DNA of 64,000 nucleotides from Octopus sinensis (taxonomy: Eukaryota), in the NCBI RefSeq assembly GCF_006345805.1, contig NC_043004.1, positions 36,208,001 through 36,272,000 on the forward strand, in the 5' to 3' direction. The notes beneath the pieces were generated by a model, which saw only the letters and a program-made list of their open reading frames with translations, had not been told where the DNA came from and made no database searches. The position numbers and the translations under genes are program-made. Positions within the stretch are counted from its first letter, which is position 1. Every line of letters begins with the position of its first letter. Positions 20,585 through 64,000 of this stretch are shown here, piece after piece.

Positions 20585-21468
20585 GCTTCTAACGCTGGAG
20601 ATGTACAGCAATGTCAGCTGTTCATTGCCAGTGAATTAAGATAATACTCGTTATCTTAAAGATGATACCAACATCATTTGGGCAATGCTGATGGAATATT
20701 TTCCACATGATGCAGATGATGTAGCGCTCACAGCGGCGTTGGAGGCAATAAAGCTTGAGCTTTTCTAGTTGACCCCAATAGTCAAGGCCAGTCATGCCAT
20801 CTATCCTTTTGTAATTGACCTTTGAGGTGCTATAGTTTTCATCATACTTTGTTTCGTTTGGGGGAACCACAGTGGACAACAGTATTCAAGGTGGGATCGG
20901 GCGAAAATGGAGAAGTGAAGGATAATGGTATGGAATCTCTCAAATGGAAAGTTCTGTGAATCCAGGAACACATTCTGCAGCCCATGTCAACTTTGCTGTT
21001 TATATGAGCGGCTCAGCTTATGTTGATGTCCACAATTACTCCCAAGTCTTTGATGTTATTGGATGCCATGGGAGCTTCACCTGAAGGAAGGAAATATGGG
21101 AGTTTCAGGGTATTCTTTTTGTCCGAAGTGGATAAACTTAAATGTTTCAACAGCAGCATATTTTTCTTTTCCACCCATTGGATGACAGCCAGTCGGTCTG
21201 ACATAAGGCATGTCCGGTCACCCACTTCATTGATGACCTGGAACTTGGAATGATCTGCAAAGATTCTTATGTTGCTGTGTTTAATGATGTCAGTAATGTC
21301 ATTGATATAGATGATGAAAAGAAGTGGGCCCAACACAGTACCTTGTAGAACACCACTACTGACTTTGGCTGGACTTGGTTTTACTCCTTCGACTACAACA
21401 TGTTGGGTTCTGCTTGTCAGAAAACTCTTGATCCATTGTAGTAACTTTCCAGAGATACCAGTGATGGA
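20585..21468 (-). mobile_element. CR1/L2-group LINE reverse transcriptase fragment
   Basis: [25 protein letters not shown]...[21 protein letters not shown]...IFADHSK...KDLGVIVD; later LDYWGQLEKLKLYCLQRRCER. Confidence 0.9.
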
Positions 21469-21671
21469 TAAATATATATATGCATACATATACATATATA
21501 TGCACATATATACAAACATATATATGCATACATATATATACACATATATATTTACATACATAAATATATATATATATATAATCATACATATATATATACA
21601 TATATATATATATATATGTGCATACATATATATATATGTGCATACATATACATATATATGCATACATATAC

Positions 21672-21714
<43 letters not shown>

Positions 21715-21849
21715 CATACATATATATATATATATGTATATACATACATACATATATAAATATATATATATATATGTATATACATGCATTCATATATAAA
21801 TATATATAATATATATATATATATGTATATATCCAAAATATTTTATAAT

Positions 21850-37429: not shown

Positions 37430-37900
37430 TACCCACTGTCTTCGGCGCTTGATAGTTTTATAGAGAATCTATTTCTTGTCACCAGTCAATATTCGGTCCA
37501 AAAAAGGTTCATTCGTGAGACGTGACAGCAAAGAAAAGCACACACTCACTCCCTGCACGTGATTAGATTCGGAAAGTTTGTGAGGAACCCATTGACCCAA
37601 TTTGCTGACTTTTCCGATGGCAGGCAGGTGTTGATGAATGGTTGAATGACCAAATCCAAGCTTCTCTGCAAGTTTCTCAACAGTTACGATGGGATTTTGC
37701 TCTACCAGGGTTTGCAGGACGTTCTTCTCGAGCTCTGCACATCTTGCAGGACGAGGCTCGTCTGCTAGTCTGTAGTTTCCAGCTTGGAATTTCTGGAACC
37801 TCCGTTGACACGGGCAAAATATGCCGAATATACTCCTTTGTCATTTCCATTATATCTATACATCCCATTTTACGAAATTAACGGTGAAAATCTTCAACTA
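37430..37900 (-). mobile_element. Truncated mariner transposase pseudogene
   Basis: MEMTKEYIRHIL...LQTLVEQNPIVTVEKLAEKLGFGHSTIHQHLPAIGKVSKLGQWVPHKLSE...FLDRILTGDKK*ILY (HTH, WVPHEL motif, first catalytic D). Confidence 0.9.
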
Positions 37901-50568: not shown

Positions 50569-51368
50569 GGCGAGCTGGCAGAAACGTTAGCACGCCGGGC
50601 GAAATGCGTAGCCGTATTTCGTCTGCCGTTACGTTCTGAGTTCAAATTCCGCCGAGGTCGACTTTGCCTTTCATCCTTTTGGGGTCGATTAAATAAGTAC
50701 CAGTTACGCACTGGGGTCGATGTAATCGACTTAATCCGTTTGTCTGTTCTTGTTTGTCTTCTCTGTGTTTAGCCCTTGTAGGTAGTAAAGAAATATGTAT
50801 TTCGTCTGCCGCTACGTTCTGAGTTCAAATTCCGCCGAAGTCGACTTTGCCTTACATCCTTTCGGGGTCGATAAATAAAGTACCAGTTATGCACTGGGGT
50901 CGAATTTAATCGACTTAATCCGTTTGTCTGTCCTTGTTTGTCCTCTCTGCGTTTAGCCCCTTGTGGGTAGTAAAGAAATAGGTATTTCGTCTACTGTTAC
51001 GTTCTGAGTTCAAACTCCGCCGAGGTCGACTTTGCCTTTCATCCTTTCGGGGCGATTAAATAAGTACCAGTTACGCTCAGGGGTCGATGTAATCGACTTA
51101 ATTCCTTTCTCTGTCCTTGTTTGTCCCCTCTATGTTTAGCCCCTTGTAGGCAATAAAGAAATAAGAAACATGAGCATGCTGGACGAAATGCTTAGCGGTA
51201 TTTCATCTGTCTTTACGTTCTGAGTTCAAATTCCGCTGAGGTCGACGTTGCCTTTTATCCTTTCGGGATCGATAAATTAAGTACCAGTTGCGTACTAAGG
51301 TTGATCTAGTCGAAAGGCCCCTTTCCCCAAAATTTCGGGCCTTGTGCCTAGAGTAGAAAAGAATATAT
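50569..51368 (+). mobile_element. Meta/MESC-core SINE with internal tandem amplification (four core copies, about 185-bp period)
   Basis: Head GGCGAGCTGGCAGAAACGTTAGC; repeated GTATTTCGTC...GAGTTCAAATTCCGCCGAGGTCGACTTTGCCTTTCATCCTTTCGGGGTCGATAAATAAGTACCAG at about 50614, 50797, 50982 and 51198. Confidence 0.9.
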
Positions 51369-61797: not shown

Positions 61798-61942
61798 GGA
61801 GTGGGTGTGTGATAAGTAACTTGCTAACCAGCCACATGTTTCCGTGGCACCTTAGGAGAGTATCTTCTACTATAGCCTCGGACCGACCAAAACCTTGTGA
61901 GTGGATTTGGTAGACGGAAACTGAAAAAAAGCCCATCGTTTA
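61797..61942 (+). mobile_element. CORE-like SINE 5' half
   Basis: AGGAGTGGGTGTGTGATAAGTAACTTGCT...CCTTGTGAGTGGATTTGGTAGACGGAAACTGAAA. Confidence 0.75.
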
Positions 61943-61948
61943 TGTATG

Positions 61949-62006
<58 letters not shown>

Positions 62007-62223
62007 AATCAATTTAGGGTAGCAAAAAATTCAGTAAAAATTTATCGCTACCAGCGGCCTAATGAAAAGAGAAAATAGTCAAAGACTAAATATGTATAAA
62101 TATAACAATTTAGGAATGGCCTAGACAGGCCATTCGTCCACTAGAAAGAGCAGCCATAACTCCAACCGCCAAGTAGTGTAATTCGGAAATAAGGTGAAAA
62201 TTTAAAAAATTTACCCTAATTCA

Positions 62224-62324
62224 TCTTTTATACGATGCATCGTTTCAGTGTCTTTAATGATAGACCAGCTTAATTAAATTAAATTAAGCTAGTCTACCAT
62301 AGGTCACACTTCATCAGTAAAAGA
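62224..62324 (-). ncRNA. Intact type I hammerhead ribozyme
   Basis: TCTTTTA-CTGATGA-AGTGT[long hairpin]ACACT-GAAA-CGATGCATCG-TA-TAAAAGA: all core nucleotides and all three stems present; GUA cleavage site. Confidence 0.9.
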
Positions 62325-63085
62325 AACCTGGGAGAGACGGATATATACGAGGCGACTGTATCAATGCCTCGGGAATATCTGTCTTAAAATTTTCAAGACC
62401 AACGCATTCGCGCCAAACTTATCGGCAGCAAATATAAACTGCCGATTCAATCTCAGAATTAGTCAGAAAATATCAATTAATCAATTTAAGGGTAGCAAAA
62501 AATTCAGTAAAAATTTATCGCTACCAGCGGCCTAATGGAAAAGAGAAAATAGTCAAAGACAAATATTATAAATATAACAATTTAGGAATGGCCTAGACAG
62601 GCCATTCGTCCACTAGAAAGAGCAGCCATAACTCCAACCGCCAAGTAGTGTAATTCGGAAATAAGGTGAAAATTTAAAAAATTAAAAACATTTACCCTAA
62701 TTCAGGGTAAATGAATTAGGGTAAATGTTTTTAAATTTTCACCTTATTTCCGAATTACACTACTTGGCGGTTGGAGTTATGGCTGCTCTTTCTAGTGGAC
62801 GAATGGCCTGTCTAGGCCATTCCTAAATTGTTATATTTATACATATTTAGTCTTTGACTATTTTCTCTTTTCCATTAGGCCGCTGGTAGCGATAAATTTT
62901 TACTGAATTTTTTGCTACCCTAAATTGATTAATTGATAATTTTCTGACTAATTCTGAGATTGAATCGGCAGTTTATATTTGCTGCCGATAAGTTTGGCGC
63001 GAATGCGTTGGTCTTGAAAATTTTAAGACAGATATTCCCGAGGCATTGATACAGTCGCCTCGTACATATCCGTCTCTCCCAGGTT

Positions 63086-63187
63086 TCTTTTACTGATGAA
63101 GTGTGACCTATGGTAGACTAGCTTAATTTAATTTAATTAAGCTGGTCTATCATTAAAGACACTGAAAACGATGCATCGTATAAAAGA
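63086..63187 (+). ncRNA. Type I hammerhead ribozyme, second copy (one extra A in the GAAA run)
   Basis: Same fold as 62224-62324; predicted cleavage after 63180; GAAAA may be a real insertion or a homopolymer error. Confidence 0.8.
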
Positions 63188-63318
63188 TGAATTAGGGTAA
63201 ATGTTTTTAAATTTTCACCTTATTTCCGAATTACACTACTTGGCGGTTGGAGTTATGGCTGCTCTTTCTAGTGGACGAATGGCCTGTCTAGGCCATTCCT
63301 AAATTGTTATATATATAT

Positions 63319-63367
<49 letters not shown>

Positions 63368-64000
63368 GTGTGTGTGTTGTTGTTTGTTTGTGTGTCTGTT
63401 TGCCAAAATTCGAAACCAATATTACTGTATACTGTTACTGTTATATATATATATATATATATATCTATATATATATATATGTTACATGAGAAAATGCGAG
63501 CAAGAGAAATAATATTCTTATGATTATAAACCTATAAAAGCACAGGACAAGTTATTACACTTGGAAAAGTTCAGGATAAGTTATTACATCTGGTAAAGTA
63601 CAGAATAAGAACATTTTTACTGGACATATTGCAGATAAGGATAAAATCTGAATATTAAAAATTATGTGATTTTAATTTTCAAGGTAACATTATAATTAAA
63701 AGAAGTACCATCATTTTGTTAAAATATTGACAAACTAGAATAGTTGAAAAACGAGAGCCAGAAGTACCAGTATAACTAAAGTTCTATGCAAAGTAGAATA
63801 GTATATATATTCATTATATAAAAATATAATTATTGGGTCAAGAGTAGAAATGTGAAGATTTGGCAATTACTTTACTGTGAATTTGTTGTTATAGGTAGAT
63901 TTTACTGTAATATATTAATAATTTTTGTATTATTCTATTTATTGTACTAACTAATTATGTAACTACTATTATTTTTTATAACTTATTTTCAAATTTCTAA

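Follow-up and report, generated by a model that had tools for sequence, protein, structure and literature searches.

The window (the whole stretch of DNA analysed, 64,000 nucleotides from Octopus sinensis, contig NC_043004.1) lies in a microsatellite-rich genome of 2.7 Gb and contains, in a region with a GC content of 0.31 (62001-64000), two arms of a tandem unit bearing a hammerhead ribozyme motif, which are arranged head-to-head between two (TA)n tracts (Table 1). A sequence-only reading had described this palindrome as two arms of about 600 bp; the inverted pair is real, but the lengths are unequal, at 700 nt for the left arm and 607 nt for the right. Each arm amounts to 1.3-1.5 tandem units, and therefore itself passes one intact cut site of the predicted ribozyme. 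The palindrome is far beyond chance, and with one substitution in 816 comparisons between its arms the locus is among the youngest of its family. The duplication within the innermost left unit is absent from all other loci among the 165 compared and is either a synthesis slip or an assembly error. No open reading frame of at least 120 aa is found in the element, and thus none with the RT and GIY-YIG domains of an autonomous PLE; it behaves like a passenger of PLEs and is not one itself.

Table 1. Features of the head-to-head locus, in positions of the window
Feature	Position	Strand	Details
Left (TA)n/(TATG)n target tract	61941..62004	.	
Left arm	62005..62704	-	unit positions 2-476 + 1-222; 3' end = start site A2
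A2 end: second CCTAAATTG motif, running into (TA)n	62005..62018	-	~98 nt further 3' in the unit (PLE-type tail)
Type I hammerhead (predicted), intact core CUGAUGA/GAAAC, palindromic stem III	62224..62324	-	predicted cut after GUA, 62231/62230
8-nt duplication, innermost left unit	62681..62688	-	private to the locus
Junction spacer GGGTAA	62705..62710	.	templated insert, 14-nt tandem
Right arm	62711..63317	+	unit positions 1-476 + 1-131; 3' end = start site A1
Reference unit	62711..63186	+	476 nt including one extra A
Type I hammerhead copy (predicted), extra A in the GAAA core (GAAAAC)	63086..63187	+	predicted cut 63180/63181
A1 end: CCTAAATTG motif running into the (TA)n target	63298..63317	+	
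Right (TA)n/(TG)n target tract	63318..63399	.	

The predicted cut falls after CGUA, at unit position 470, and the head-to-head centre lies 7 and 6 nt beyond it. The first base of the right arm (62711, ATGAATT...) is at +7 from the predicted cut and the first base of the left arm (62704, minus strand, TGAATT...) at +8, and the tetranucleotide AATT stands at +10 beside the centre. The bases missing from the arms here are the 3' strand of stem I (UAAAAGA, whose partner is UCUUUUA). The spacer together with the next ATG is a copy of unit positions 9-17, and GGGTAAATG is found at both 62705 and 62719, so that the spacer is a re-copy of the neighbouring arm sequence. On all of these points, namely the divergence of the arms from 62704 and 62711, their distance from the cut, the missing strand of stem I and the origin of the spacer, the earlier description is borne out.

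The same reading had proposed the ribozyme itself, and this proposal is supported by sequence and covariation, with cleavage predicted. The motif is of type I, having a CUGANGA and GAAA core, an NUH triplet and three stems of which stem I is open. In folding calculations the hammerhead topology of the left copy has an energy of -36.6 kcal/mol, against -37.6 for the minimum free energy structure. Among 16 natural copies drawn from the window family and a sister family, 96% of cells are paired, two-sided changes occur at 8 pairs, including the stem I pair at the cut, the core is kept, and the cleavage triplet is GUA or GUC. The covariation exceeds that of 500 out of 500 shuffles, although these overstate its significance because the 16 copies are related. 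In 11 of the 16 the first pair of stem II is A-U or unpaired, as opposed to the usual G-C. A search of Rfam gave no hammerhead at gathering scores and, by E-value, only hairpin-type chance matches, so the assignment rests on motif, fold and covariation. In the accessible part of PMC4209133 a palindromic stem III is linked to dimeric cleavage, and minimal hammerhead pairs on opposite strands, 100-700 bp apart, are mentioned.

The element is a previously undescribed member of the non-LTR retrozymes that inserts in the manner of a PLE. Its short, low-GC tandem units with a type I hammerhead, without an ORF and dispersed in many copies, resemble those of the metazoan non-LTR retrozymes, which are described as non-coding AT-rich tandem units with a type I hammerhead at hundreds of loci, and for which a circRNA template and an RT borrowed from PLEs have been proposed (PMC7229834 and the bioRxiv preprint 10.64898/2026.07.22.740005, each available in part). 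The window unit differs in its length (~475 nt, against a range of 150-450 nt quoted in the text available) and in its long stem II, and the window family differs in being mostly two-armed and head-to-head, with two fixed 3' ends. The word 'inverted' is absent from the accessible main text of PMC7229834, and in that of the preprint it occurs within a reference only. Whereas the available part of the preprint invokes local amplification by unequal crossover, the data for the window family point to arrays made at insertion. The sources returned by our literature search, as far as their text was accessible, report no mapping of retrozyme junctions relative to the cut and no two-armed retrozyme insertions.

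The mode of insertion is shared with the EN+ PLEs (Neptune, Naiad and Poseidon), which likewise have head-to-head, inverted 5'-truncated copies, a tail at one end only and a bias to (TA)n targets (PMC11167929 and the accessible part of PMC8557442), and which also carry a type I hammerhead with a palindromic stem III (PMC4209133, in part). Unlike them, the window element has no ORF, its tail is ~98 nt long as compared with 30-40 nt, and it has up to 7 units per arm.

The wider family was surveyed at 152 loci gathered by DNA search and pattern searches, none of them chosen by its junction. Its full size is roughly 320 loci, as 888 exact 18-mer matches were found and there are ~2.8 per locus on C1. 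The window locus, four junction-selected loci (each fetched twice) and arms of 40 nt or less were dropped before counting, as were repeated junctions within one locus and, in the tally of 91 junctions, BLAST pieces below 84% identity; L002, L088 and L110 were corrected by hand. The head-to-head arrangement is present in 107 of the 152 loci, and 101 of these 107 (85/91 and 16/16) have exactly one A1 and one A2 end. These two fixed outer 3' ends each follow directly on a CCTAAATTG motif, at unit positions ~125 (A1) and ~223 (A2), with a spacing of ~98 nt. The target is (TA)n: (TA)5 or longer adjoins both outer ends in 77 of 91 loci, part of this sample having been found with a TA-ended pattern, while 39 best-hit loci found otherwise show the same bias.

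At least two sister retrozyme families, ~70-80% identical, are also present (L166-L211; e.g. L196:2422-2536, L166:1901-2015 and L118). They keep GGGTAAAYGTTT 11-15 nt past the cut and have compensatory changes in stems I-III, and most of their loci too have an A1 and an A2 end. Three young insertions, L018, L076 and L118, adjoin older sister-family insertions, and it seems that a (TA)n tract can serve as target more than once. At L027, L078 and L131 there are adjacent duplicates of complete or partial insertions.

Both arms of a locus carry one haplotype. Substitutions amount to 0.39% between units within an arm and 0.41% between the arms of one locus, against 2.98% between loci; seven locus-private alleles are fixed in every unit of both arms, and 86 are confined to one unit. 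In four loci, judged by eye, one unit in each of the two arms has the same private allele, the two units being in register when counted from the 3' end; for those four this suggests a multi-unit template rather than a monomer circle. Arm lengths are memoryless (exponential fit, KS p 0.37) and extend to 7 units, the longest arm being 3454 nt, and within loci they are correlated (rho 0.33). The longest arrays, among 40 scored of 1844 candidates, have ~9 units, so that a long master array may exist elsewhere. In the left arm of L019, and in that arm only, private variants recur at a 3-unit period, which may mean that three units were duplicated once the insertion was in place, or that the template was trimeric.

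The junctions between arms carry either short microhomologies, with overlaps of 2-5 nt at 46 of 91 against a background of ~9%, or templated inserts, which are present at junctions remote from the cut as well (L030, L070 and L081). Near-symmetric junctions are in excess overall (10 of 91, 2.1 expected). Arm ends are most clearly enriched at the stem III palindrome (unit 456-459; 9 vs 1.8), partly as a measuring effect, and over stem II (unit 396-445) they are mildly raised (29 vs 20; e.g. L073, L095, L005 and L112); the excess at these stems may reflect either RT pausing or palindrome annealing. L025 and L035, on different chromosomes and with different arm lengths, have an identical junction (unit 188/471) containing a TAAAA microhomology that begins at the cut, and the same 5-mer is used by L012.

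The sequence-only reading had gone further and taken the coincidence of centre and cut as a footprint of ribozyme cleavage and of the insertion mechanism. In an unselected set of 113 position-ordered loci, chosen without regard to their junctions, breakpoints span the whole unit, and the cut is crossed in 215 of 221 passages. None of 186 arm ends lies at -1..+2 (1.9 expected). The enrichment within about 10 nt that was to be looked for is likewise not seen in these unselected copies, 6 arm ends falling at +1..+10 against 4.7 expected (ratio 1.28, CI 0.47-2.78); the stop rate over all 186 ends is 1 per 462 nt, and at 0 of 91 unselected junctions do both arms begin within +1..+10. Taken over unselected loci, then, 5' ends ignore the cut, and their scatter together with the read-through argues that cleaved monomers are not the main template. 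What stands of the proposed insertion route is the head-to-head join of two 5' ends, but not a cleaved RNA as its normal intermediate. The 39 best-hit loci did have more near-cut ends than expected (6 vs 1.65), but this excess was set aside, since the query used for ranking begins at +7 and gives preference to arms that reach this point, which makes ends accumulate just 5' of it, and the pooled figure of 11 vs 5.4 suffers from the same bias.

Loci in which both arms start near the cut were then gathered by a genome-wide pattern, which gave 50: 11 of the window family, including the window locus, 26 of one sister family and 13 others. The same pattern design applied to control positions gave 6 loci at unit 70 (4 at 83% identity or more), 1 at unit 145 and 0 at unit 367, this last control covering one subfamily only (carried by 2 of the 11 test loci). 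The 10 near-symmetric junctions near the cut in other loci of the family thus compare with 4-6, 1 and 0, and the exposure-adjusted rate ratio is 2.2-3.9 (p 0.01-0.10; 0.03-0.10 against the unit-70 control alone). Of 34 scored loci in this selected set, 11 have an arm at -1..+2, against 7.0-8.8 expected (p 0.07-0.24), and the cut is crossed by 4, compared with 16-22 under the null models; L184, L210 and the 13 other-family loci were assessed by eye alone. An AATT palindrome underlies about half of the selected set, and small palindromes are also found at the control junctions, so that the null probably gives symmetry too little weight. Across the genome 8 arms start within 2 nt of the cut, against 2.6-6.4 expected depending on the numbers assumed; of the 23 matches in that search 14 are internal indels and one is ambiguous. 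One arm starts at +1/+2 in five near-cut loci of the family (L140, L142, L156, L184, this last by eye, and L185) and in the sister-family loci L176 and L177, and at L208 the two arms seem to meet bluntly, at +1/+1. An apparent 10-fold excess relative to independent arms was discarded once the control gave 6 near-symmetric junctions away from the cut. These observations are suggestive of a minority class of insertions, a few percent of the total, that is bounded by the cut, of which the window locus, at +7/+8, is no exact case. That its centre lies close to the cut does not clearly exceed chance expectation.

We consider that the locus is probably a non-autonomous retrozyme insertion into (TA)n, made by a PLE RT that primed on both target strands, with a centre that came to lie near the cut by chance. 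A GIY-YIG endonuclease would cut both strands of the (TA)n tract, after which one RT would start at A1 and another at A2, on a template that may be a circular or uncleaved multi-unit RNA; a circular template has been proposed for retrozymes (PMC7229834, available in part). The two primings would take place on one RNA, or on RNAs of one source. A purified PLE is known to cut and extend both strands at AT-rich DNA, and to start at two internal sites bounding the tail, ribozyme cleavage not being required (PMC11167929). Each RT would drop off at a rate of about 1 in 460 nt, and the two cDNA 3' ends would be joined by microhomology-mediated repair. At the window locus the left cDNA end may have primed at ...CCC, copied GGGTAAATG and re-annealed through the ATG. 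Near-symmetric junctions would arise preferentially at small palindromes, such as the AATT here, and the likely task of the ribozyme would lie upstream, in excising a unit RNA that is then circularised. In L1 twin priming both target strands prime on the RNA, and microhomology joins the cDNA 3' ends to give a 5'-5' junction; the internal position of the second primer varies, and the arms do not overlap. Here, by contrast, neither start varies, and one and the same sequence is copied several times over in the arms.

The strongest competitor retains the two RT starts on one retrozyme RNA and supposes that a few percent of templates are self-cleaved linear molecules, on which the two cDNAs ran off at a common 5'-OH end and were joined after losing 6-7 nt, so that the locus would be a germ-line footprint of the hammerhead. 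We regard this as doubtful. A common RNA end would explain why both arms stop together, 10 other family loci and ~39 sister-family loci have both arms near the cut, the excess over the controls is 2-4x, and the exact +1/+2 starts and the rarity of crossings among such loci point the same way. The unselected arm ends show no excess, however, the pile-up at -1..+2 in the selected set is non-significant, AATT underlies about half of that set and small palindromes recur at the controls, and the arms of the window locus do not start at +1. For an anole PLE, moreover, no RNA reads start or end at the hammerhead site (PMC11167929). The match of centre and cut is thus better put down to chance and a local palindrome, which is the probable explanation, than to cleavage.

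It is also conceivable, if distinctly improbable, that near-symmetric centres form after insertion, when the long inverted repeat extrudes, loses its unpaired centre and comes to end at a small palindrome. Inverted repeats are unstable, and the excess of symmetric junctions, frequently located at the palindromes of stem II and stem III or at AATT/CCGG, would fit such a process, but most junctions are still asymmetric, and the window locus is among the youngest and carries an insert rather than a deletion alone. The suggestion in the earlier reading that a single cDNA folded back, its own copy becoming the second arm, agrees with the common haplotype of the arms and with a spacer resembling snap-back synthesis. 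It is very unlikely and is largely refuted by arm-length nesting: the arms terminate at two different fixed sites, the A1 arm is the longer in 45 of 85 loci, and in 37 of 85 the lengths fit neither arm as a copy of the other. Least credible is an artefact of assembly or of read fold-back. The locus does have private indels, and the four public runs searched over 62560-62860 consist of assembled contigs only, none of those listed spanning the centre, which is uninformative either way. Against an artefact, the outer flanks are unrelated, which makes a fold-back unlikely, the arms stop at two family-specific ends, the same architecture recurs in 101 of the 107 inverted loci, and similar centres are found at L141 and L139.

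As to the enzyme that the favoured reading calls for, GIY-YIG matches are numerous in the genome (150 scored of 5029 candidates), and one ORF has RT and GIY-YIG domains with a CxxxxCxxC linker, a linker given for Neptune and Nematis in the available part of PMC8557442. In 30 of the 150 scored GIY-YIG loci, searched to 1.5 kb on either side, no sequence in common with the unit was found. High-copy RT and GIY-YIG elements, with several open frames of 780-883 aa and a Neptune-like linker, are represented by L238 and L239 together with GIY-YIG matches, and elements of this type are candidates for the source of the enzyme. L240 has two copies of another hammerhead-like motif, one on each strand, next to a GIY-YIG match. 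Elsewhere in the window, 21016-21789 (-) holds a reverse transcriptase fragment with a weak RVT_1 match below the Pfam cut-off, and 37472-37840 (-) a weak HTH_32 match that we take to belong to a mariner-type transposase fragment. A 183-nt unit in three tandem copies (50614-51163) is presumably SINE-like.

The origin of the tandem and inverted structures of PLEs and of their one-sided tail is named as an open question in PMC8557442, and the mobilisation of animal retrozymes in preprint 10.64898/2026.07.22.740005 (each as far as available). This young family constrains both at the population level, in that each start site yields one arm, each insertion carries one haplotype and the ribozyme site is read through, and it supplies a short RNA for a direct test in vitro. 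A centre that marks the cleavage site would at best be a property of a small subclass. Should it be true that a few percent of templates were self-cleaved while most are circles or uncleaved multimers, the insertions would record the PLE reaction in vivo, with an RT dimer that primes both target strands.
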